Shown here one piece after another: positions 2,894 through 60,141 of a stretch of 64,000 nucleotides of DNA (positions within the stretch are counted from its first letter, which is position 1; the number at the start of each line of letters is the position of its first letter). The position numbers and the translations under genes were made by a program. The stretch lies in the IMG/VR virus record IMGVR_UViG_2645727839_000001, positions 32,001 to 96,000 of that record; one strand, written 5' to 3'. Source of the stretch: a virus (taxonomy: Duplodnaviria > Caudoviricetes). The notes under the pieces are model-generated. The model was given only the letters and a program-made list of their open reading frames with translations. It made no database searches and was not told the DNA's origin.

Positions 2894-2960
2894 TAAAAAA
2901 ATAGGGGCCGCTAAGCCCCGCACACACAAAGAGATCGGAGCGTGTCGCTCGTCTCAATTC
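2894..2960 (-). ncRNA. candidate small RNA 1 (~67 nt) with seed UCUCUUUGUGUGUG antisense to the shared gene leader
   Basis: TATAAG -10 box at 2966-2971; 5' hairpin GAGCG-ACA-CGCUC; seed; terminator GGGGC-UUAGCG-GCCCC followed by UA and a U7 tail. Confidence 0.65.
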
Positions 2961-2994
2961 ATGTTCTTATATTAACAGCGTTACTCAGGTAATT

Positions 2995-3012
2995 AAAGTC
3001 ACCACTGACTAA
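2995..3012. promoter_or_regulatory. 18-bp palindromic operator copy
   Basis: AAAGTCACCACTGACTAA, just upstream of the candidate sRNA-1 promoter. Confidence 0.6.
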
Positions 3013-4040
3013 GTGCCTTGGTGATGCCGGATAAGGCGGAGAAAGCCCCATGGTGTTTGTACGAAACAGGCACTCTACCTATACGGATTTCGCCCCTTTC
3101 TCCGGTTTTCAGGATAAACCACTTTCTCCATCGAGGTGGCGCGATATTTTCTACCTTGGCCAGAAGAGGTAAACCTATTAACCGTGGTTGATTATTCTGG
3201 TGTGCCGCTGACCGATACTGGTCTTCCTATAAGAATTTTCTACGATTTGTTGACACTGGAGCTTAAAAGACCACGATAACTAACACTTTTCCCCCAAATT
3301 CTCCCTATTCTCCCCTTATCTATTACTACATACCTTACTACTACTCTTACCTACTCTATCTCTATAGTTACTACCTAATATCTACTTACTATATCTATAC
3401 CGGAGAGTATTGTTCTTCTTTCTATCCGCAGGTTAAGAGCGAGGTAAAGTGACAATTCATTTTAAGGTTTTTCTCTACTGGTAAACTTTACTTTCAATAT
3501 AGACCTTTATTGTACTTTGCTTATACAAGCCGGAGTTATTGAATTTCTCTGTAAGCCTTGTTGTGTATGGGTTTGTTTGAGTTTTTAGGACAGTTAAACA
3601 ATTTACTTTTTTCTTCTACGGTTTGAGTACATTTGCCTTACTCTTGTTTAGTAGGTTTGAAGAGTATTAGCCATGTTTAGCCAGACCATAAAAGACCGTT
3701 TATCTTGTTTTCTTTTTCTCTCACTGGTGTGATTTTGATTTGAGTTGTTTAGGGTTGGATTGGGGTTAGTTCCGGTTGATTAGCTTTGTTATTAGTTACC
3801 GTGTCACATAGCAGTCACGCCACCAGCTTCTCTTTCTCTCTACTGTTTGAGTACAAATACTGAATCAAGGGAGTAATGTTTCTGTCGCTCTGTTGTCTTC
3901 TGAGAGTCTTGGGGTTGTCTTTTTGATGTCTACAGTCAGCTTTTGATTGAAAAGCTCTTAGAATTGATTTGAGAGAGTGATTTAGATATGAAAAAGGGCT
4001 AACTTTCGTTAACCCTTGTTATTGGTTTTATCTACTGTAA

Positions 4041-4559
4041 TTAGAACGTGTAACCCAAGTAAGCTGCGAAACCAACGCCCTCTGCTATCTCTGTTGAGAA
4101 GCGAGCCGTTAAACCAAATGAGCTTGTGTATTGAATACCGGTACCCAAACTTAGCTGAGAGCTAGTTCCTTCTGAATTGCATGGAATCAACCAACCACAT
4201 GTGTAGCCATCGAACAGAGTTACCGAGTCTTTCTTACTGCCAATCCCTACCCTACCGAACAGGTCCCATTGTTTGTTTAACGGGAACATACCTGTTGGTG
4301 CAATGTAAGTGTGGCTCTGTTCATACTTAAAAGCCCAAGTTTCAGTCTTTAGCTTTTTGTAGCCTACCTCTAGTGCAAAGTAGGGATTGAAGCGGTAGCC
4401 CATGAAAACATCTGTACCAACTGAATCGAGTTCAGGTGATGAAGTGCTTAGTTCTATCATACCGCCGCCCATAACATAAATGTCACCTGCTCTTACTGGT
4501 GATGGTGCTGCGATTGCTGATGTGGCAATAAGTGTTAGAGCCAATATTGTCTTTTTCAT
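4041..4559 (-). CDS. OmpA-like 8-stranded outer-membrane beta-barrel protein
   Basis: Signal peptide, GYRFNPYFALEVGY motif, C-terminal GYTF. Confidence 0.85.
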   Translation of the reverse strand: MKKTILALTLIATSAIAAPSPVRAGDIYVMGGGMIELSTSSPELDSVGTDVFMGYRFNPYFALEVGYKKLKTETWAFKYEQSHTYIAPTGMFPLNKQWDLFGRVGIGSKKDSVTLFDGYTCGWLIPCNSEGTSSQLSLGTGIQYTSSFGLTARFSTEIAEGVGFAAYLGYTF

Positions 4560-4664: not shown

Positions 4665-7600
4665 TTAAGATTGTGATGGGTATGCTTCTTTAAAAAGCTC
4701 ATGCATGTTGGAGAATAGTTTCGCATCTCCGAACTTACCTTTCTGAAAACCCTTAGTCTTAGCATCGAAGCCAATTGAATACTTGGTATTCAAGATTGCT
4801 TGATTAGGCTCTTTAGATATCTCAAGCAAGTTCATAGGCGTCCACGCATGAGGGACTTTGGTGTACTCATCTACAAAGTTATTCGATACCATCATGATAT
4901 GGCCACCGACTCGAGCTGCACGTCGAGTTTCGGCAAACAGTGTGCTCGTGTCGTTGTTCCAGAACACAGTGGTATCGATGTTTTCGAATGTAGAGGTTTG
5001 GCTTCCGTCCTCAACAAAAGCGATAAACTTAGGAGATAACATTTCACCATTGTTTATGCTTTCACTCGAGATCTTGAATGAAGCCCAACCGTAGTTGTAC
5101 CCCGATGGGTTATGAGAGTTACCCATGTAAAACCCAATATCGATTTCTAGAGCGTTAACGCCATCATCATACTGACAGCTAACGTCTATGATATTTGAGC
5201 CATACTTGTCTTCGCATACTTTGTGAATAGAACGATCAGGTAAACCTAAACCTGCTTCTGCTTCTAGCCATAAATTAGGCGCCTCAATACCCACTTCATT
5301 ATCCTCTCGATCTACTGGCTTCTCACCCGGTACAACACCAGAATCAGGATCTAAAGGTTTATCAACCTCTTCACCCGGTGTTCCCGGTTTCGGCACAGTT
5401 ACTTCATCTTCTTTGTTATCTACTTCTTCACCCGGTACCCAACCATTACCATTATCAGGCTCGATAGGATTAATTCCAGACTCTACATCTCCGGTATTAT
5501 CTTCTGGCTTAGTACCGGGCTTCCAGCCATCTCCGTTATCTGGATCGATAGGCTTAATTCCAGACTCTACATCACCAGTGTTATCTTCTGGCTTAGTACC
5601 GGGCTTCCAGCCATTACCACTATCAGGATCGATAGGCTTAATTCCAGACTCTACATCACCAGTGTTATCTTCTGGCTTAGTACCGGGCTTCCAGCCATCT
5701 CCGTTATCTGGATTGATAATTTCATCGCTAGGCTTACTAGGTGGATTAATCGGCGTCTCTCCGTCAGGAGTACTTGGTCGACCCGGAACGGCATGATCTG
5801 GATTGTTAGGGTCAGTCATGTCTTCACCCGGTATACCCGGAGCAACCTCGACGCTGTTATCTTCCTTATCTGAACCATCTACCCAACCGTCACCGTTATC
5901 AGGTTCTATTGGTTTGATTCCCGGCTCATAAGGAATATCAGGTTCACCTTGACCCGGTTTACTTGGTCGCCATCCGTTGCCATTATCTGGGTCAGTCATG
6001 TCAGTCCCATCTTCCGGCTTGGGTGTAAACTCAAAATCAGGGTCAATAGGTTCTACTAGACCAAAATCTTTATCACCGATAAAAATTGAGTCATCTTCTT
6101 TATCAGTACCCGGAACCCAACCGTCACCATTAGTGCTATCGTCTGGTGTTAAACCCGGAGCCCAGGGGATATCTGGATCACCACCATTCGGTTTGCCAGG
6201 CACCCAACCATTGCCATTGTCAGGTTCTATTGGCTTAGTACCCGGAGCCCAGGGAAGATCAGGTTCGCCTCCATTTGGCTTGCCGGGAATCCAACCATTA
6301 CCGTTATCTGGATTAGTCATATCTTCACCCGGAGCTACATCACCAGTATTATCTTCTGGTTTAGTTCCCGGTTTCCAACCATTACCGTTATCTGGATTAG
6401 TCATATCTTCACCCGGAGCTACATCACCAGTATTATCTTCTGGTTTAGTTCCCGGTTTCCATCCATTGCCGTTGTCTGGGTCAATTGGTTTAATACCAGA
6501 CTCTACATCTCCGGTGTTGTCTTCTGGTTTAGTACCGGGTTTCCACCCATTACCATTGTCAGGATTGATTGGCTTAGTACCGGGTTTAACATCACCAGTA
6601 TTGTCTTCTGGTTTAGTACCCGGCATCCACCCATTACCATTGTCAGGATTGATTACATCGGTTCCATCTTCTGGCTTAGGTGTAAACTCGAAGTCACTAT
6701 CTAAGTCAATATCACCCACGTAAACCCAATTTAAGTAGTCGTTCTCAACCGTAACAATGTAACCACCGTTGTAGTAAGACTTCGTACCGTCTTCGTTCTC
6801 GATCACTTTGAAAGTAAAGTGATGGTTGTTAACCGTGTGAACGTTAACTTCACCTCTTAAGCCGTTACCGAACGTAGCAATAGAAGTTTTCTTATAGAAG
6901 ACTCTACCTGCCTCTACACGAAGGTCTGGTTTAAAATCAGTACCAATGTCTAAGAACGGTGGGATTGGATTAACAGTTGGTGGAGTGATGTTAAAATCAC
7001 CGTCTAGCTCAGCATCACCTACATAAACCCAATTCAGTAGCCCGTCATCTTCTACTGAAATCATAAACCCACCGTTGTAGTAAGCTGTTTCGCCATTGCC
7101 TAATTCGACAATTCGGAATACAAGCTTTTCACCACCACGAAGACGTAAAGTTACCTCGTTTTTATGAGACAAACCTACATGAGCAATAGAAGTCTTCTTG
7201 TAGTAAAGCTGCCCCTGCTCTAGATAAATCTCTGGATTGAAATCTACACCGATGTCTAAGAACGGTGGAAGAGGGTTTTCTATTGGTGGCATGATCTCGT
7301 AGTCGCTATCACCATTCCAGTTACCTTCTTCACCTACTTCCCAATCTGGGTTTGTATCAGGTGGTGTAATTGGCTTTGTTCCGTTGTCAGGACGCTCAAT
7401 GCCTACTTCAACATCATTATCAGGTGTCGTAGTAGGTGCATCAGGAACCCATCCATTACCATTGTCAGGTTCAGTTGGTTTAGTACCCGGTTCTACTAAG
7501 CTAGGCATATCCAAATCAAGATCGCCTACATAGTTCCAATCAACCTTACCGTTCTCATCAACAGTAACTTTGTAGCCGCCATTGTAGTAAGACTTAGAGC

Positions 7601-8285
7601 CATCAGAGTTTGTGACCTCTTTGAACTCATACATTTTGCCGTCTTTAGCGCGAAGTCGAATGGTTCCCGGCTCGCCCTTTCCAACGTGGCCAATAGACTC
7701 ACCTTTGACGTAAAGCTGTCCATCATCTTTGTTGAAATTAGCTTCTGGTTTGAAATCGACACCAAGATCAGGTTGTGAAGGAGTAGTACCTACCTCTTCA
7801 TCGGGTGTAGTTGGCTTCTCACCCGGCACCCAACCATCAGTGTTGTCTTCTGGTTTGGTACCATCTTCTGGTTTAGGGGTGAATTCAAAATCAGGGTCAG
7901 TAGGTACTTCTAATCCAAAGTCCTTATCTCCAATGAAGTCAGGTTCACCCGGCCATATTGGAAGCTCGACGCTAGGGTAATCTGGAACTTCGACATCAGG
8001 AGAGCCGCCGCCCGGTAGTGGTGCAGACTCTTCATCACCCGGAGTTGTTGGGGTTCCCGGAGTCCAACCGCTATCTGGAGTAGTTGGTTTAGATCCCGGT
8101 GCGATATCACCATTATTGTTTTCTTTGTCTGAGCCATCTACCCAACCGTCACCATTATCTGGGTTGATAGGATCAATGGGTTCAACTACAGCTGGTGGCT
8201 TTTCTGGTGCCAAAGTGTCTCGACTATCATCGTTACAACCGACGAGCGAGAGCCCTATGGCAATGCACAGTATTGATTTGTTCAT
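4665..8285 (-). CDS. giant Pro/Asp/Gly-rich repeat lipoprotein
   Basis: Lipobox LVGC after MNKSIL; 28-aa repeats PDNGNGWKPGTKPEDNTGDV; three ~90-aa YYNGG/WxYVGD domains. Confidence 0.8.
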   Translation of the reverse strand: MNKSILCIAIGLSLVGCNDDSRDTLAPEKPPAVVEPIDPINPDNGDGWVDGSDKENNNGDIAPGSKPTTPDSGWTPGTPTTPGDEESAPLPGGGSPDVEVPDYPSVELPIWPGEPDFIGDKDFGLEVPTDPDFEFTPKPEDGTKPEDNTDGWVPGEKPTTPDEEVGTTPSQPDLGVDFKPEANFNKDDGQLYVKGESIGHVGKGEPGTIRLRAKDGKMYEFKEVTNSDGSKSYYNGGYKVTVDENGKVDWNYVGDLDLDMPSLVEPGTKPTEPDNGNGWVPDAPTTTPDNDVEVGIERPDNGTKPITPPDTNPDWEVGEEGNWNGDSDYEIMPPIENPLPPFLDIGVDFNPEIYLEQGQLYYKKTSIAHVGLSHKNEVTLRLRGGEKLVFRIVELGNGETAYYNGGFMISVEDDGLLNWVYVGDAELDGDFNITPPTVNPIPPFLDIGTDFKPDLRVEAGRVFYKKTSIATFGNGLRGEVNVHTVNNHHFTFKVIENEDGTKSYYNGGYIVTVENDYLNWVYVGDIDLDSDFEFTPKPEDGTDVINPDNGNGWMPGTKPEDNTGDVKPGTKPINPDNGNGWKPGTKPEDNTGDVESGIKPIDPDNGNGWKPGTKPEDNTGDVAPGEDMTNPDNGNGWKPGTKPEDNTGDVAPGEDMTNPDNGNGWIPGKPNGGEPDLPWAPGTKPIEPDNGNGWVPGKPNGGDPDIPWAPGLTPDDSTNGDGWVPGTDKEDDSIFIGDKDFGLVEPIDPDFEFTPKPEDGTDMTDPDNGNGWRPSKPGQGEPDIPYEPGIKPIEPDNGDGWVDGSDKEDNSVEVAPGIPGEDMTDPNNPDHAVPGRPSTPDGETPINPPSKPSDEIINPDNGDGWKPGTKPEDNTGDVESGIKPIDPDSGNGWKPGTKPEDNTGDVESGIKPIDPDNGDGWKPGTKPEDNTGDVESGINPIEPDNGNGWVPGEEVDNKEDEVTVPKPGTPGEEVDKPLDPDSGVVPGEKPVDREDNEVGIEAPNLWLEAEAGLGLPDRSIHKVCEDKYGSNIIDVSCQYDDGVNALEIDIGFYMGNSHNPSGYNYGWASFKISSESINNGEMLSPKFIAFVEDGSQTSTFENIDTTVFWNNDTSTLFAETRRAARVGGHIMMVSNNFVDEYTKVPHAWTPMNLLEISKEPNQAILNTKYSIGFDAKTKGFQKGKFGDAKLFSNMHELFKEAYPSQS
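5435..5720. repeat. 84-bp tandem repeats within lipoprotein gene (array 1)
   Basis: TAATTCCAGACTCTACATC recurs at 5471, 5555 and 5639. Confidence 0.85.
6290..6650. repeat. 84-bp tandem repeats within lipoprotein gene (array 2)
   Basis: CCGTTATCTGGATTAGTCATATC at 6301 and 6385, with degenerate copies following. Confidence 0.8.
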
Positions 8286-8299
8286 ACTAATCTCCAACC

Positions 8300-8815
8300 C
8301 TAGAATCGGTAGCCGGCCATTAACATCAAGCTAGAGTAATTATCTAACTCGAAATCGGTGAGGTTGAAGTTGTATTGAAGACGAATGAAATGGTCTTGAT
8401 CGTCAGTTGTGTATTCAGCGCCTAGACCCAAAGCAGGTTTGAAGTCGCGGTTAGAATCACAAGTTGGACAATCCCAATCGATGTGTTGGAAGTTAAACCC
8501 AACCTTAGTGAAAAGATCGAAGTTTTGGTTGATCGCATAGTCAAACTTACCAGCGATAGATAAGTTCCACAGGTGCTCAGTATCGCCTTGATTGCGATTG
8601 AAGAGGTGTGTAGTTTCAACTTCTACAGACATTACGCTGTCGATCTCATGACCGAAGCCTGCCGCCACAGTAACAGGGTTACCTTTGTAGTCGTCTACGA
8701 ATGTTACGCCAGTACCGCCGTAAACATAAGCTTGAGGTGCTAGTGTTTCAGCTTGTACAGATAGAGTTGCTCCGGTCGCCATAAGAATGGCTGTTGCGAT
8801 TAATTGCTTTTTCAT
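8300..8815 (-). CDS. OmpA-like outer-membrane beta-barrel protein
   Basis: Signal peptide, amphipathic beta-strands, C-terminal GYRF. Confidence 0.85.
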   Translation of the reverse strand: MKKQLIATAILMATGATLSVQAETLAPQAYVYGGTGVTFVDDYKGNPVTVAAGFGHEIDSVMSVEVETTHLFNRNQGDTEHLWNLSIAGKFDYAINQNFDLFTKVGFNFQHIDWDCPTCDSNRDFKPALGLGAEYTTDDQDHFIRLQYNFNLTDFELDNYSSLMLMAGYRF

Positions 8816-10733: not shown

Positions 10734-10751
10734 TAAGTCATTGGTGACTTA
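10734..10751. promoter_or_regulatory. 18-bp palindromic operator copy
   Basis: TAAGTCATTGGTGACTTA. Confidence 0.75.
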
Positions 10752-11823: not shown

Positions 11824-12157
11824 TTAGTTTTCCTTCAATGTTTCCAAATAGGTTAGGAAACTCTTTTTGAAGGCATTCGACTAGCATTTGCTGATGACCG
11901 CTCGATAACATTTCACTGATACCATCCGTCTTGCTTTGCATAACATAGCCATTAGTGAAACGGCATTTGTTGCTTGCTTCGTTTAGCAAAGAGATTTGGT
12001 TTTCAAACGTAGAAACGTGAATGGTGCCAGTTGCGTCAGCAGAAGAGATTCGATGGTAAGTCACTCCTAACTTATTAGTCAGGGCAACATAAAGGAAACC
12101 TCGAGCTTGGCTTTCGATAGGATGAACAAGTGCTAGTAATTCGATAGTGCCTTTCAT
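11810..12157 (-). CDS. hypothetical protein
   Basis: ORF with shared leader motif. Confidence 0.65.
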   Translation of the reverse strand: MKGTIELLALVHPIESQARGFLYVALTNKLGVTYHRISSADATGTIHVSTFENQISLLNEASNKCRFTNGYVMQSKTDGISEMLSSGHQQMLVECLQKEFPNLFGNIEGKLSVNS

Positions 12158-15324: not shown

Positions 15325-15429
15325 CACAACAAAGCCGCCCGACTGGGCGGCTTTTATGCGTAGGCCACTACCCTACTGAACAATTAAAATTGTTCTACAC
15401 AAAGAGAAACCACTAAAAGTAGTTTCACC
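15325..15429 (-). ncRNA. candidate small RNA 2 (~105 nt, four hairpins) with seed GUGGUUUCUCUUUGUGUAG
   Basis: Promoter TTGAAT(15459-15464)-17 bp-TATACT(15436-15441); stems GAAACUACU/AGUGGUUUC, GAACAAUU/AAUUGUUC, GUAGG/CCUAC; terminator AAAGCCGCCC-AGUC-GGGCGGCUUU. Confidence 0.7.
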
Positions 15430-15449: not shown

Positions 15450-15998
15450 TTAAGATGCATTCAACCGAAAGTAGCCTAAACGCTCGCCTTCAAAGAGCGA
15501 ACGAGCCAAAACATCAGTGTCATAGTCGGCTCTGTGAGCTGATTCTGGGTCGTAATCCACACCCATAGCCCAACATAACTCTGCTAGATTGGGTACTTTA
15601 CCCATTGAAGTTGCTGTTCTCCCCTCAACCATAGTGTCATAGACTTCAAACTGAGGAACTTCAAAGCCATCAGCCATCAAATTGAAAGCAATGATTGGGA
15701 AATCGAACGAATAGCCATTATGCGCAACGGCATAATCGCACTTCTCAAGAATCTTAATTAGCTTAGGCGCAACCTCTTTGAATGCAGGTTTGCCTTTCAA
15801 ATCATCAGCACTAATGCCGTGTACAACTTGAGCCTTTGGATCGATTGCTTTAGGCGTCCAAATCAATTCGTTCCATGTAGTTCCGACCTGACGCCAACCT
15901 GCTTCTTGCTTGCGGTATACGCCAACAGCAATCTCGATGATCTTATCTTCTTCAACGTTTAAGCCTGTGCTCTCAACGTCCAGAACAGCAACTATCAT
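15450..15998 (-). CDS. DEDDh 3'-5' exonuclease (DnaQ/Pol III epsilon-like)
   Basis: LDVESTG, VAHNGYSFD, HRADYD. Confidence 0.9.
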   Translation of the reverse strand: MIVAVLDVESTGLNVEEDKIIEIAVGVYRKQEAGWRQVGTTWNELIWTPKAIDPKAQVVHGISADDLKGKPAFKEVAPKLIKILEKCDYAVAHNGYSFDFPIIAFNLMADGFEVPQFEVYDTMVEGRTATSMGKVPNLAELCWAMGVDYDPESAHRADYDTDVLARSLFEGERLGYFRLNAS

Positions 15999-20792: not shown

Positions 20793-20820
20793 TAGAGTAA
20801 GTCACTAGTGACTTACTCTA
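20793..20820. promoter_or_regulatory. perfect 28-bp palindrome containing the consensus operator
   Basis: TAGAGTAAGTCACTAGTGACTTACTCTA. Confidence 0.85.
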
Positions 20821-29200: not shown

Positions 29201-29563
29201 CTATTCCGGTGCAGTCATGTCGGATAAAGCAGAAGACGTATTGGAGCCTACCTCTTCTGCATAGCTATTCGTTGCCTTGCGAGTTTTGGCGATCTCATCA
29301 AGGATGTTGTTTGGGTTGTGAGGGCTGTATGGATTGGTTGGGTCCATAAGTTGCTCTGCACTTGTTAGTCGCCTTTTTGGCGGCTCACTATAAGAATTCA
29401 AAGATGGTATTTGAAAATCTCGTTTTTTCCTATTTGTTACATTCAACATATTAAGTCTGGTTTCGTTATGGCGTTTACGTTCTGTTAGCCAAGCAATGCA
29501 AAAGAATATATCCAAACCAAGCGTGACAAAGAGCCAGAATGAAAGACCACCTAAAAGTTCCAT
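29201..29563 (-). CDS. hypothetical membrane-anchored protein
   Basis: N-terminal hydrophobic helix. Confidence 0.6.
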   Translation of the reverse strand: MELLGGLSFWLFVTLGLDIFFCIAWLTERKRHNETRLNMLNVTNRKKRDFQIPSLNSYSEPPKRRLTSAEQLMDPTNPYSPHNPNNILDEIAKTRKATNSYAEEVGSNTSSALSDMTAPE

Positions 29564-30261
29564 ACAAACACTCTATCCAACTCAGGCCGACTTGCTCTTG
29601 AGAAGATAGCCGGACTTGTGAAGATTTGCGGGTCTAAGTCCATAAGTGGGGAGTTTTGATGAACAGAGAGATTGCCAACAAGAACAAATGTCTTAACACC
29701 TGCTCTGATCATCTTCTTGTAATCGACACCAAACATGTTGCCGCCACGTTCGTGAGAAGATTCCATGTATTTGTGTGTAACCCAAGAAGCTACCACCACT
29801 TTAGGCTTAAAGTTCTTGAATGCTTTGTTGGCGTCTATCTCTACAACATCTTTGCCGTAGTTCACAGTGGGTTGATGCGCTAGACCATATAGAGCTGCGG
29901 TTGCGTACTTATGATTGTTCTTAGGGTGTTGTTGATAGTTATCAACCATTCGAATACCCAAGCTACGACCATATACCCCGTTACCTGCTCCGATTTCCAT
30001 TGCTCTGGATTTGTCTTCTGGTAAGAAGCTACTGATAAAGTTGATAAGCTCTAAAGACGGGATAGAGTAAAAAGCGTGTTTATGGCAGAAAATTCTTAGC
30101 TTACTTCGTGGTATTTCAGCGAGTACATCCATCGGGAGTACCTTCAACTGCCCTTCTTCATCAAGAAGCAAAGCCTCAACATCGCTAACGTCTTCGGGCT
30201 CTAAAATAGATAGGCTACCAAGCATTGTGGATACTTGATCAAAAAGCTTTTCTGAGTGCAT
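29551..30261 (-). CDS. SAM-dependent methyltransferase-like protein
   Basis: MEIGAGNG motif I; shared leader; operators at 30284 and 30334. Confidence 0.6.
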   Translation of the reverse strand: MHSEKLFDQVSTMLGSLSILEPEDVSDVEALLLDEEGQLKVLPMDVLAEIPRSKLRIFCHKHAFYSIPSLELINFISSFLPEDKSRAMEIGAGNGVYGRSLGIRMVDNYQQHPKNNHKYATAALYGLAHQPTVNYGKDVVEIDANKAFKNFKPKVVVASWVTHKYMESSHERGGNMFGVDYKKMIRAGVKTFVLVGNLSVHQNSPLMDLDPQIFTSPAIFSRASRPELDRVFVWNF

Positions 30262-36832: not shown

Positions 36833-36850
36833 TAAGTCACTAGTGACTTA
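36833..36850. promoter_or_regulatory. perfect 18-bp operator
   Basis: TAAGTCACTAGTGACTTA; second copy at 36895-36912 brackets an ATGCCT-15-TATAAG putative promoter. Confidence 0.8.
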
Positions 36851-40534: not shown

Positions 40535-41665
40535 ATGGTAGGCAATATCAAAATCGCGAATATCCTTGAGAAGTTCAATGAAGTAGGTAATGAAGTACTA
40601 ATTGAATTACGTGAACATGGTGCATCGACTAAGAAATCTTCCGACCCTAGAAAATATGGCGCGCAAGAAGCTGCACATATATTAGGTCGCTCTCTTCCTT
40701 GGCTTCGTGACAACTCACGTCACATTGAAATCTCAGGTAACGGTAGAAGATATTACACGCTTCAAGACCTGTGGGATTTGAGAGAGGCTGGTGGATTGAT
40801 TTATCAGAAGCCGGAAGGAAAGAAAGCAATAAAGAAGGTTGTTGCTAACTTCAAAGGTGGTGTTGGTAAGAGTACGACCGTTATTCATGAAGCTCACTAT
40901 ATGGCTACATATAAAGGTATGAAAGTTCTAGTTATCGACCTAGACCCTCAAGCTTCAACCACATTCTGCATCAGCACAATGATTCCCGATTTGGATGTTG
41001 CACATGAGGATACGATCGTTGACTCGCTAACCAGTGACGTTTCGCTATGTGCTGATATCTTCCGTGGCACATACATACCTGGAGTGGATTTCATACCGGC
41101 TAACCTATCTCTTCAAGCTCTAGATATGATGCTGTTGAATGCCGACGATGAGAACATTGATCGCTTGGGGCCTATTCATACTCGCCTTGATTCGGTTCTT
41201 AAGTTGGTAGATGAACACTACGACCTCATCCTTATTGACTGTCCACCTAATATGGGAATGGTTACAGCAAATGCTATCACTGCGGCTAACGCAATGACTC
41301 TGCCAATTCCACCAGCTCTATACGATGTAGGCTCTGCAATTCTATTCAACAAAACTATCAGCCAATTCCTAGAGCAGTCAGGTAAAGAGTTGGACTACTT
41401 CAAGGTTCTTCTAACTAAACACCCTGAGTCGGCTGCTTCTAAGCGAAACGAATCACGTATTCGCCAAATCTTTGGTGATTACGTTTACGGTGGCTCAATT
41501 GTGGCTACTACTGAGTTTGAAAAGGCATCTGAAAACTTCACTACTGTTTACGACATCAACCGTGAAATGACTTCTAAGAAGGTTTACGAGCGAGCACTTG
41601 AAAGCCTGAATGAAGTACATGAAGAGATGTTCGCAGACTACCAATCACTAATGGGAAATGAGTAA
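40535..41665 (+). CDS. parA: type Ia ParA partition ATPase
   Basis: N-terminal HTH, NFKGGVGKST, IDLDPQAS, IDCPP. Confidence 0.93.
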   Translation: MVGNIKIANILEKFNEVGNEVLIELREHGASTKKSSDPRKYGAQEAAHILGRSLPWLRDNSRHIEISGNGRRYYTLQDLWDLREAGGLIYQKPEGKKAIKKVVANFKGGVGKSTTVIHEAHYMATYKGMKVLVIDLDPQASTTFCISTMIPDLDVAHEDTIVDSLTSDVSLCADIFRGTYIPGVDFIPANLSLQALDMMLLNADDENIDRLGPIHTRLDSVLKLVDEHYDLILIDCPPNMGMVTANAITAANAMTLPIPPALYDVGSAILFNKTISQFLEQSGKELDYFKVLLTKHPESAASKRNESRIRQIFGDYVYGGSIVATTEFEKASENFTTVYDINREMTSKKVYERALESLNEVHEEMFADYQSLMGNE

Positions 41666-42825
41666 TGACTGACACAAAGAGAAATCAAGACAAGGTACAT
41701 GCAGCTTCACCTATGCTTGCAGGTTTGAACAGAGATAGAGGTAACGATCGCTCTTCTGTCAGACGTGACACAAACAAGCCTAAGTTGGACATCATGAGCA
41801 AGATTAATGAGTCCAAAAAACCAATCGAAGAGGGTAGTGCAGCCTCGGAAAGTGTCACCACGCAGGAGACAAAATCTGAAAATGTCACCACGCAGGAGAC
41901 AAATTCAAAAAATGTCACCACGCAGGAGACAAAACCCGATGTTGAGAAAGCTGCTCCTAAAAAGAAGAAAGCCAAAGAATCTACCGCATCTGAAATAGCT
42001 ATCGAGTTAATCACCCCTTGGGGGTTTGCTGATAGACCGGATGATGAGTTTGGTGATGATGAAGAATGGCACTCGTTTGTTCAATCTATTCGCCAAGATG
42101 GAATTGACCAGCCTGTTACTGTTCGCCCTAAGAAGGGTGGCAAAGGTTATGAATTGATATGTGGTCGTCGTCGTTACACGGCTGCACTCGAATGCAACAT
42201 GAGAGCTATGCCATGTATCGTTCGTGATCTTGATGATATGGAGGCCGCTCTACTTCAAGACCGTGAGAACGAACAGCGTAAAGACCTATCGGTTTGGGCT
42301 AGAGCCAAGAACTGGCAGAACCTACTCGACAACAATGTATTCAAAAACTCATCACAGTTAGGTGCTCATCTTGGTTTAGATCGACGCTACGTAAATAAAG
42401 TAATGGTGTTTACTCGCATTGAGCCTGAAATTGAGGCTGCTATTTCCAACAAGGGAAATGTAAGTATGTCGTTAGCACAAGAGTTGGTTAATCTAACTCG
42501 AGTTACTGACCTACAGCCGAAGAGTACTGTTAAGAAAAATATCGAGGCTATCGTTGCTGTAGCGGATAAGATTTCAATTGGTGGAATGACCGGAGCTAAG
42601 TTGAAGTCGCTAATCAATAAGGCTGACTCTGACGAAAGCAAAACAGATAACGAAATTGCCTACGACAAGAATATAGGTGTTGTTGACGGTACTAGATATA
42701 TTACTTTGCGTAAGGATAGTAACGGAACACCAACTATCAGTATTTTAAAAGAGGCTAGGGAGCTTATTACTGAGCAAGAGATTGCGGAGCTTATTACCTC
42801 TCTAATTGTTGACTCCAAAAAATAA
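41665..42825 (+). CDS. parB: ParB/Spo0J partition protein
   Basis: QPVTVR, ICGRRRY, ENEQRKDLS, HTH. Confidence 0.93.
   Translation: MTDTKRNQDKVHAASPMLAGLNRDRGNDRSSVRRDTNKPKLDIMSKINESKKPIEEGSAASESVTTQETKSENVTTQETNSKNVTTQETKPDVEKAAPKKKKAKESTASEIAIELITPWGFADRPDDEFGDDEEWHSFVQSIRQDGIDQPVTVRPKKGGKGYELICGRRRYTAALECNMRAMPCIVRDLDDMEAALLQDRENEQRKDLSVWARAKNWQNLLDNNVFKNSSQLGAHLGLDRRYVNKVMVFTRIEPEIEAAISNKGNVSMSLAQELVNLTRVTDLQPKSTVKKNIEAIVAVADKISIGGMTGAKLKSLINKADSDESKTDNEIAYDKNIGVVDGTRYITLRKDSNGTPTISILKEARELITEQEIAELITSLIVDSKK
41849..41932 (+). repeat. three 30-bp tandem repeats inside parB
   Basis: TGTCACCACGCAGGAGACAAA three times, encoding VTTQET. Confidence 0.85.
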
Positions 42826-53330: not shown

Positions 53331-53375
53331 GTGATTCTCTTTGTGTGTAGTCACTGGTGACTTATGTGTTTACTA

Positions 53376-56194: not shown

Positions 56195-56240
56195 TTCATA
56201 TAGTGAGCTTGCACTGTATACACACACACAAAGAGAAACG

Positions 56241-56585
56241 ATGGTGAGAACTCGAAGCATACCTCAAGAAGAATTGATAAAGCTTTACGAGTATGAACGT
56301 TCATTATCAAGAAGGCTGCTCGGCTTGGGCGAGAAAATTAAGGTCGCCAGAGAAGCTAATCGATACTCGCAAGAAACAATCGCGGAATGCTTGAACGTAT
56401 CACGCTCCACAGTTAGCGCAATCGAAAGAGGTAAGAGCACTCCTTCTTTGGCGTTATTGTTAAAGATATCGTACATAACCAATCGTCCACTTGATTGGTT
56501 CTTCGATAGAAACATAGATCCCTTAGCGGGGATCAAGTCAATCAAGCTAAACCTGAACAACGGACTCTACGAAATAGAGTACTAG
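56241..56585 (+). CDS. XRE-family HTH regulator
   Basis: LGEKIKVARE...SQETIAE.LNVSRSTVSAIERGKSTPSL. Confidence 0.88.
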   Translation: MVRTRSIPQEELIKLYEYERSLSRRLLGLGEKIKVAREANRYSQETIAECLNVSRSTVSAIERGKSTPSLALLLKISYITNRPLDWFFDRNIDPLAGIKSIKLNLNNGLYEIEY

Positions 56586-59097: not shown

Positions 59098-60141
59098 TTA
59101 ACCTTCGTTAAAGAGTTCGCCACTCGCGAATGAAATACCGTAGACCTCATTTGTCAGAGTCATTGTAATCTTACTTGGCTTAGTAAGATCTTTCACCGTA
59201 AATGCAGCCTCAATTTCAATTGGAGCCGTAGGCTTCTTAGCAAGTTCTGTCGCAACAGACGCCACAATATTTGATTTAAGCGTATCGAAATCAACTGTCT
59301 TACTTGGAACTGCTATCCACTGACTGTTCTCCATGTTAACGGAATCAATTAAGATCTTAGAACCTGGCAAATTATGCTCATGTGGACCTTCTGTCATAGA
59401 TACGCCATACAGTGAACCGTATGAGCCAGGATTGTCAAAATCTGCGACCAATTCGGCATATTTAGCTTTAGCGAAAATTTCAGCATCCTTACCTTGGAAT
59501 TTTTCGCTTTCTACTCCGCCTCTAATAACCCCGTCAGTGTCCACATAATAGCCATATATTTTGGACACAACATATTGAAGTTCAGGCGTTACAACCGTCT
59601 CGCGTTCAATTTCAACAACCGTGTCATCGGGTTTTGTAATGACAATTCGATGGATGTTATCGCCACTGCAATTAATACCAAAGTAAAGATACTCTTTGGC
59701 ATCTTTTGTAAAATACATAGCGGCCGTTACTGGGGCTCCTTTTGGGAACTCCGATTGCCATTTTGTAATAAGAGAATCAAAATGGTCGGCTGTTGGCACT
59801 GCTAAATGTATCTCTTTAATTTTGCCACCTGATACTGTCTCAAGACGAATAACACCCAGTTCCCAAGATACGTCGTCATCAGCATTTAAATTGGAGCTAT
59901 AGCAAAAGTACTTCGCAAATTTAGTTGTAATATATTTGCCGAGAAAAACACTCATCTCATTGGTGTCTGTTTTTGCAATAGCCTTTTGCACTTCAAGGTC
60001 AAAAGCTCCACCTTTTAATGTCTCAGCCAGCGGCGCATAGTCACTCAATGACGTTAGAATATCGCCGTTCGTGCTTGGCTTGTCATGACAATTCCTGCAA
60101 GCACCATCAAATGTATGTTCGACTATTAAGTGATGTGACAT
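59098..60141 (-). CDS. hypothetical protein
   Basis: AGGAG RBS before MSHHL; N-terminal CRNCH; operator at 60190-60207. Confidence 0.7.
   Translation of the reverse strand: MSHHLIVEHTFDGACRNCHDKPSTNGDILTSLSDYAPLAETLKGGAFDLEVQKAIAKTDTNEMSVFLGKYITTKFAKYFCYSSNLNADDDVSWELGVIRLETVSGGKIKEIHLAVPTADHFDSLITKWQSEFPKGAPVTAAMYFTKDAKEYLYFGINCSGDNIHRIVITKPDDTVVEIERETVVTPELQYVVSKIYGYYVDTDGVIRGGVESEKFQGKDAEIFAKAKYAELVADFDNPGSYGSLYGVSMTEGPHEHNLPGSKILIDSVNMENSQWIAVPSKTVDFDTLKSNIVASVATELAKKPTAPIEIEAAFTVKDLTKPSKITMTLTNEVYGISFASGELFNEG

Follow-up and report, generated by a model that had tools for sequence, protein, structure and literature searches.

To our knowledge, each phage small RNA reported to date acts either on a single neighbouring gene or on an assortment of host and phage targets. 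The c4 RNA of the immI operon of P1 and P7 is a small RNA that lies upstream of other genes in the same transcription unit and blocks these downstream genes post-transcriptionally, and the immI operon is also under the control of an operator and a repressor (as outlined in PMC8198154). The sar RNA of P22 and the OOP RNA of lambda pair with the mRNA of a phage regulator, at the ribosome-binding site or close to it, and so block its translation, and VpdS (from the Vibrio phage-plasmid VP882) and PreS (from lambda) are Hfq-dependent short RNAs that base-pair with phage and host mRNAs (as summarised for these RNAs in PMC12197685). In the Cluster K mycobacteriophages, a 13-nt motif (SAS/ESAS) is found before the start codons of 11–19 non-structural genes, according to the main accounts of this motif (PMC3203893, PMC11373665, PMC12699233). 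The same accounts note that an inverted repeat with a promoter often lies upstream of the SAS and that one reverse copy lies away from the gene starts (PMC3203893, PMC11373665). The role of the SAS has been a question since 2011 and is called unresolved in papers from 2024–2025 (PMC3203893, PMC11373665, PMC12699233).

Here we describe a phage locus that can be compared with each of these systems. We analysed a 64,000-nt stretch of DNA ("the window"), which is bases 32001–96000 of a complete virus record of 115,468 bp; unless stated otherwise, coordinates are positions in the window. On the minus strand, from 2961 to 2895, the window contains an element (sRNA-1) that is predicted to give a short RNA of about 66 nt. 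This element very probably functions at the RNA level. More specifically, from the sequence analysis of two genomes, we put the probability at about one half that sRNA-1 is an anti-leader riboregulator, a translational repressor of a whole class of phage genes. It might also double as the leader of a 106-aa gene just downstream. The transcription of sRNA-1, the ends of the RNA, its pairing in vivo, the direction of its effect, the involvement of Hfq, and its timing in the phage cycle are all predictions.

In the mechanism that we propose, the RNA would be transcribed from a TAnTATAAG-type promoter up to a strong intrinsic terminator. Two hairpins, one at the 5' end (H1) and the other in the terminator, would keep the U/G-rich stretch between them, UCUCUUUGUGUGUGC, open. 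The open stretch is antisense to (CAC)ACACAAAGAGA, a motif that contains the weak Shine-Dalgarno element at about 20 genes, most of them non-structural. By pairing with the target mRNAs from about -20 to -6, sRNA-1 would block the loading of ribosomes, and one small RNA could repress translation across the class. If transcription reads through into the 106-aa gene, then a decoy sequence, GCACACACGGA, would mask the seed and leave this gene's own leader free.

Among the known RNAs, c4 (reportedly the subject of work by Citron and Schuster in 1990) is by analogy the nearest mechanism. As with c4, a phage-plasmid would here encode a small RNA upstream of genes that it controls, although ours is predicted from sequence. 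The next gene downstream of sRNA-1 has a ribosome-binding region that is complementary to the seed, and an operator-like palindrome lies upstream. In sequence and in gene content, however, sRNA-1 falls outside the c4 group: it has no match in sequence or structure to any Rfam family, the downstream gene is an orphan instead of an antirepressor of the icd/ant type, and the complementarity reaches about 20 dispersed genes, via their shared motif, rather than one operon. The sar and OOP RNAs are true cis-antisense RNAs that overlap a single target, whereas most of the predicted targets of sRNA-1 are encoded elsewhere in the genome. Like VpdS and PreS, sRNA-1 has an open U-rich stretch that adjoins a terminator with seven to eight U, but we found no homology to these RNAs, and its predicted regulon is set by a repeated phage leader motif instead of comprising assorted targets.

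By its arrangement, sRNA-1 also parallels the SAS motifs of the Cluster K mycobacteriophages. Both systems have asymmetric motifs of 11–13 nt with a Shine-Dalgarno core, which are located a few nucleotides before the start of 11–19 (here 20) mostly non-structural genes. The host lacks the motif in both cases, and an inverted repeat with a promoter often precedes it. The two systems resemble each other only in layout, as the consensus is GGGATAGGAGCCC for the SAS and ACACAAAGAGA here, and neither the host phyla nor the phage lineages are related. Another difference is that the reverse copies in our phage have clear promoter and terminator signatures.

The phage genome and the predicted RNA

The DnaE-type polymerase of the phage is 46% identical to that of Pseudomonas phage nickie and 36–38% identical to those of SSU5-like phage-plasmids. 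Because the 115,468-bp genome contains two ParB-domain genes and we found no tyrosine integrase in it, this is most likely a plasmid-type temperate phage (a phage-plasmid). The window also holds a two-gene operon on the plus strand (40535–42825) whose second product has a ParB N-terminal domain.

The sole close relative that we found for this phage, which we take to be a Vibrio phage-plasmid, is a 54.7-kb contig (contig_32) from a Vibrio isolate, Vibrio sp. D404a. The D404a contig is collinear with our phage and about 70% identical to it in DNA, with 64–77% identity over nearly all of the alignable parts. It was the single match when we searched species-representative genomes, and it alone matched when we searched 285 Vibrio genomes and 401 genomes from the same family. 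(The other short matches in those 285 and 401 genomes are due to chance; the one that we inspected was a generic terminator.) No homologues were found in phage records, whether by DNA or by protein, or in plasmid records. Searches of IMG/VR by protein and by exact patterns of 18 nt and 21 nt gave no relatives, as did searches of metagenome contigs by protein and by pattern, and scanning IMG/VR for the 14-nt target sequence of the seed returned unrelated contigs only.

A sequence-only reading of this locus had described a hairpin, a seed, and a terminator in that order on the minus strand, and all three are present where it placed them, so the sequence observation at 2895–2960 is real. H1 (2955–2931) has an inner hairpin, GAGCG-ACA-CGCTC (2950–2938; GAGCG/CGCUC as an RNA stem), that is lengthened by an outer stem of GAGA (2955–2952) and TCTC (2934–2931; GAGA/UCUC in the RNA). 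The anti-leader stretch follows at 2934–2920, and positions 2930–2920 are unpaired in the minimum-energy fold. The 14-nt seed within it (2934–2921) is TCTCTTTGTGTGTG in the DNA and is written UCUCUUUGUGUGUG in the U/G-rich single strand; its UCUC portion is predicted to be paired within H1, which counts against the anti-leader reading. The intrinsic terminator (2919–2895) consists of a stem-loop, GGGGC-TTAGCG-GCCCC (2919–2904), followed by TA and then by seven T (2901–2895). The T-run lies 3' of the hairpin on the minus strand only, and at this locus no terminator signature was found on the plus strand.

A terminator scan lists this hairpin with six pairs, five of them G-C. A six-pair stem followed by UA and seven U (eight U in the tail of the D404a terminator) corresponds to the long-U-tail, rho-independent terminators of Hfq-type sRNAs. 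Terminator-like sites are frequent in this part of the window, with seven between 2000 and 4700 versus 2.5 ± 1.7 in shuffled sequences. The 67-nt RNA is predicted to fold at -21.3 kcal/mol (z = -2.0; five of 200 shuffles equal this) into a pair of hairpins that are separated by an open stretch, and the same two-hairpin architecture is obtained from both genomes. A search of Rfam had been named as a check on the sequence-only reading, and it gave no matches in the whole window at the gathering thresholds. The C4 antisense RNA family had no match at its gathering score, and no aptamer family matched at the locus. Between 2400 and 4100, with E values of up to 10 allowed, there were seven sub-threshold matches (E = 1.4–8.1), none of them to a phage small-RNA family.

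The promoter-like region upstream (2993–2966, minus strand) comprises ATTACC (2993–2988), a 16-nt spacer, and TAATATAAG (2974–2966). A -10 box had been proposed here. The hexamer TATAAG is indeed present (2971–2966), but a simple sigma-70 scan makes no call on the minus strand; the -10 box either ends in G or, if it is read as TAATAT, has a poor -35 box. TATAAG has 36 intergenic and 23 coding copies in this genome, of which 10.5% is intergenic, and TAnTATAAG has 15 intergenic and four coding copies. TAnTATAAG is thus a recurrent promoter-like word, and it has G where the -10 boxes of sigma-70 promoters usually carry T. In D404a, GTTAnTATAAGAACATGAATTGAGAC from this region is identical, and the counterpart of the promoter is TACTATAAG with TTTACC (versus TAATATAAG with ATTACC here). 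Given the intergenic enrichment of TAnTATAAG and its conservation in D404a, we infer that the transcription of sRNA-1 starts near 2961.

An operator had also been proposed, and the sequence in question contains an inverted repeat, AGTCA-GTGG-TGACT or AGTCAGTGGTGACT (3010–2997, which is about -37 to -50 relative to the predicted start of the RNA). This palindrome is not particular to sRNA-1, however, but a weak member of an intergenic family: AGTCA-N2-6-TGACT has 28 matches in the genome, 27 of which have a 4-nt centre, and nearly all of which are intergenic. The consensus of the family is TAAGTCAC-NN-GTGACTTA, and its copies sit at varying positions around promoter-like sequences and leaders. 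Examples in the window are at 10736–10749, 20800–20813, 36835–36848, and 53349–53362. The copy at sRNA-1 is identical in D404a, including the central GTGG. The family is also found in IMG/VR contigs of 94–118 kb, whose polymerases are 39–43% identical to that of our phage (with a match in 10 of 10). In these distant relatives, the sequence of the arms is kept and the centre is free, a pattern more in keeping with a DNA site bound by a protein than with an RNA hairpin. The palindrome looks like the dispersed operator of a family-wide regulator. We considered the XRE and PadR proteins as the binder across the whole family and rejected them because none of the 10 distant relatives has a homologue of either. 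Three of the palindrome-bearing relatives (G002, G006, and G009) have 57–65% G+C, and we found no shared leader motif in these three.

A leader motif at 20 genes and its antisense copies

The seed had been said to pair with 14 contiguous nucleotides in the leaders of two genes. The exact 14-nt complement, CACACACAAAGAGA, is found in both of these leaders: before an XRE gene (56223–56236, plus strand, with the ATG at 56241; -23.3 kcal/mol) and before a gene for a 115-aa protein (12183–12170, minus strand, with the ATG at 12157; -23.5 kcal/mol). That these two genes are special targets did not hold up, as the seed is antisense to a motif that is common to 20 genes. When no more than one mismatch is allowed, this start-associated leader motif, ACACAAAGAGA, has 29 matches in the 115,468-bp genome. 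Most of the matches (21 of 29, at 20 genes) lie 4–12 nt before a start codon, where start codons are those of ORFs of 57 aa or more and gene starts are from a crude custom ORF script. Another six matches are inside genes. The other two are intergenic and antisense to the flanking genes; these are the seed of sRNA-1 and a copy at 15397–15407.

ACACAAAGAGA is among the most intergenic-enriched words of the genome. The 5.3-Mb genome of D404a contains 15 copies, and because 11 of the 15 are on the 54.7-kb phage contig, we take the motif to be the phage's own and not the host's. The genes that carry it are mostly non-structural. Many are orphans, and the products of others include the XRE and PadR regulators, an outer-membrane beta-barrel protein, a CobS-like ATPase, and a DNA-binding protein.

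The predicted pairing is concentrated at the starts of genes. Duplexes of -18 kcal/mol or lower are predicted between the seed of sRNA-1 and 16 of 146 start regions, versus two of 405 intragenic control windows. For the corresponding sequence of a second element, sRNA-2, the counts are 23 of 146 and six of 405. As a point against, the XRE leader in D404a has only 10 contiguous bases that are complementary to the seed (as compared to 14 here).

sRNA-2 (15464–15324, minus strand) contains the other antisense copy of the motif. It has the same design as sRNA-1, with a promoter, an anti-leader, and a terminator, and it lies between two minus-strand genes. Its promoter is sigma-70-like (TTGAAT-17-TATACT at 15464–15436), and the predicted RNA runs from 15430 to 15324, with the anti-leader GUGGUUUCUCUUUGUGUAG at 15413–15395. 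The RNA would form two or three hairpins and then the terminator (15351–15334, with a U-rich tail to 15324); the z score of the fold is -5.4. In D404a, the -10 region, the anti-leader (as GGTTTCTCTTTGTGT), and one hairpin are conserved, and the other stems differ in a compensatory way (for example, GCCGCCC/GGGCGGC here versus ACCGATC/GATCGGT in D404a). sRNA-2 would prefer the CUACACAAAGAGAAAC variant of the leader. It is exactly complementary over 19 contiguous bases to the start region (30280–30262, minus strand) of the gene at 29551–30261 (-33.1 kcal/mol), and its anti-leader also matches 16 bases of the start regions of two further genes. Because sRNA-2 has both the design and the conservation pattern of sRNA-1, we counted it as independent support for the anti-leader reading.

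Conservation in D404a and competing explanations

At the sRNA-1 locus, the parts that are identical in D404a are the palindrome, GTTAnTATAAGAACATGAATTGAGAC, ATCTCTTTGTGTGTGCGGG, the T-run plus AAAGCACACAC, and the leader. ATCTCTTTGTGTGTGCGGG, which is the seed with the first bases of the terminator, is the same base for base. Exact shared blocks of 21, 19, 18, and 17 nt fall within a span of about 127 nt at this locus, and there are 47 exact blocks of at least 17 nt between the two genomes in all. The 19-nt block contains the seed. All of the differences inside the RNA are in the two hairpins, and the pairing is kept. In the inner stem of H1, which is GAGCG/CGCUC here and AGAGC/GCUCU in D404a, the register is shifted by 2 nt and each of the five pairs differs in both of its bases. 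The terminator differs in both bases of two pairs and in one base of a third, with pairing in 20 of 20 cells. In other words, in these two sequences, a conserved and unpaired seed is accompanied by covarying stems.

Covariation had been suggested as a check on the element. Compensatory changes in the stems are seen relative to D404a, but 121 of 500 shuffles reach the observed score across the scorable columns. The covariation carries no statistical weight because only two genomes have the element, and the compensatory pattern is suggestive, not proof.

The gene directly downstream is an orphan ORF of 106 aa (2851–2531, minus strand). Its product is predicted to be helical with a basic tail. 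It belongs to no PHROG family, no Pfam match exceeded the cut-off, and a search of a protein database returned only the query itself. In the collections that we searched, its single relative is the orthologue in D404a (57% identical). A structure model of the protein had a pLDDT of 57 and was too poor for a structure search.

The leader and ribosome-binding motif of this gene, CCACACAAAGAGA (2870–2858, minus strand), includes a copy of ACACAAAGAGA (2868–2858), and the ATG is at 2851. The seed is complementary to this leader over 12 nt here (-19.3 kcal/mol) and over 14 nt in D404a (-21.1 kcal/mol). Between the terminator and the leader is the decoy (2891–2881, minus strand), with which the seed can pair if transcription reads through. 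The decoy is within the 18-nt exact block that is common to D404a, and the duplex of seed and decoy has an energy of -15.9 kcal/mol in both genomes. This duplex uses G-U pairs, which speaks for the minus strand, and one of them is an A-U pair in D404a. The 121-nt read-through RNA folds at -36.3 kcal/mol (z = -3.97), which none of 200 shuffles equalled. Our reading of the conserved decoy is that it serves to keep the 2851 gene translatable, which would imply that the seed is active.

sRNA-1 is directly 5' of the orthologous gene in both genomes, and this arrangement fits a purely cis-acting role equally well. The element would then be the 5' leader of the 106-aa gene only, and the short RNA would be a by-product with no role in trans. 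Transcription would start near 2961 and mostly stop at the terminator, and in the read-through RNA, the seed would turn translation off by pairing with the leader of that gene, or leave it on by pairing with the decoy. Besides the linkage to the orthologous gene, which is kept in both genomes, the pairings of the seed with the gene's own leader and with the conserved decoy, and the stable read-through fold, all agree with this explanation, and a separate promoter is not obvious anywhere from the terminator to the ATG. Nevertheless, we consider it somewhat unlikely. The seed matches other leaders better (14 nt) than it matches the leader of its own gene (12 nt). There is no conserved antiterminator: an alternative pairing of H1 with the terminator (-11.5 versus -10.0 kcal/mol) is predicted in the nascent RNA from the window sequence only, where it is transient, and it is absent in D404a. 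Furthermore, in D404a, the gene that is 3' of the second element does not have the leader motif, so control in cis leaves the shared design of the two elements unexplained.

It is improbable that the locus is just an ordinary terminator beside a relic, a copy of the leader motif that was inverted by recombination. On that explanation, there would be no role at the RNA level, and the constraints would be those of a promoter, a terminator, and DNA binding. Repeated motifs are prone to recombination, and the locus belongs to an accessory region that is variable and contains orphan genes. Also, with only two genomes, shared ancestry could partly account for the conservation. But a relic would be expected to decay at the background rate, to about 30% divergence, and yet it is the adjoining stems that have diverged, and the seed is part of an exact block of 19 nt. 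The same pattern recurs at a second, unrelated locus. Finally, for about 1 kb upstream, there is no coding gene on the same strand for the terminator to serve.

A function of the plus strand, where the motif copy at 2924–2934 would drive a mini-ORF (GTG at 2942, 16 aa) or mark a DNA site that works in either orientation, is very improbable: the distance of 7 nt from motif to GTG does fit a ribosome-binding site, but plus-strand mini-ORFs are not conserved as a coding alternative in D404a (the ORF there has another start, length (12 aa), and reading frame across conserved DNA), the plus strand lacks a terminator signature, and the sense copies of the motif are strictly tied to start codons, which argues for a role of the motif at the RNA level.

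If the anti-leader reading of sRNA-1 is correct, then the set of targets is written into the genome as a repeated leader motif, and the regulon can be read from the sequence. The timing of a whole class of genes could be set by one promoter, and the pair of leader and anti-leader could act as an orthogonal translational switch. If the RNA is only the leader of the 106-aa gene, then it is a minor and unremarkable case of gene control in a phage.

A reverse SAS copy in Cluster K and the neighbouring sequence

More tentatively, the leader motif and its dedicated anti-leader small RNAs could form a single system, by which the phage tags a class of genes and switches that class off, and the same logic may explain the SAS of Cluster K; we regard this broader proposal as possible but doubtful. 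Such a leader/anti-leader system would be an RNA counterpart of RegA/RegB of phage T4. The anti-leader idea also provides a concrete and cheap test of why some phages carry start-associated motifs.

The genome of Mycobacterium phage Anaya contains a single reverse copy of the SAS, in a 385-bp non-coding gap after a terminator. The region around this copy (59789–59949 of the Anaya record) is non-coding and conserved in 135 phage records (Anaya and 134 others from Cluster K). We aligned this region from eight phages that were picked to span the range of identity. In the consensus fold, the anti-SAS is in a hairpin loop. Compensatory changes are seen for eight of the 44 predicted pairs, several G-U pairs indicate that strand, and the covariation energy term for this alignment is about zero. 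The reverse-SAS region may encode an anti-SAS RNA. In the text of the articles on SAS that we consulted, we found no published link between the motif and an antisense RNA.

Some features of the sequence upstream of sRNA-1 are also of note. From 2961 to 4040 (about 1 kb), the window has only three short ORFs (40–57 aa), all on the plus strand. The minus strand is A/C-rich and G-poor from about 4000 to 3560, and this is followed by a G/A/T-rich tract from 3400 to 3290 with a single C in about 110 nt. At the same place, the D404a contig has a tract that is similar in composition but not in sequence. The 2961–4040 region may be an origin, may be prone to R-loops, or may encode a long non-coding RNA. 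Beyond it, two genes for small outer-membrane beta-barrel proteins (4041–4559 and 8300–8815) flank a gene for a 1206-aa protein with repeats of the PDNGNGW type (4665–8285). These three look like accessory surface genes, and the beta-barrel gene at 4041–4559 carries the leader motif.
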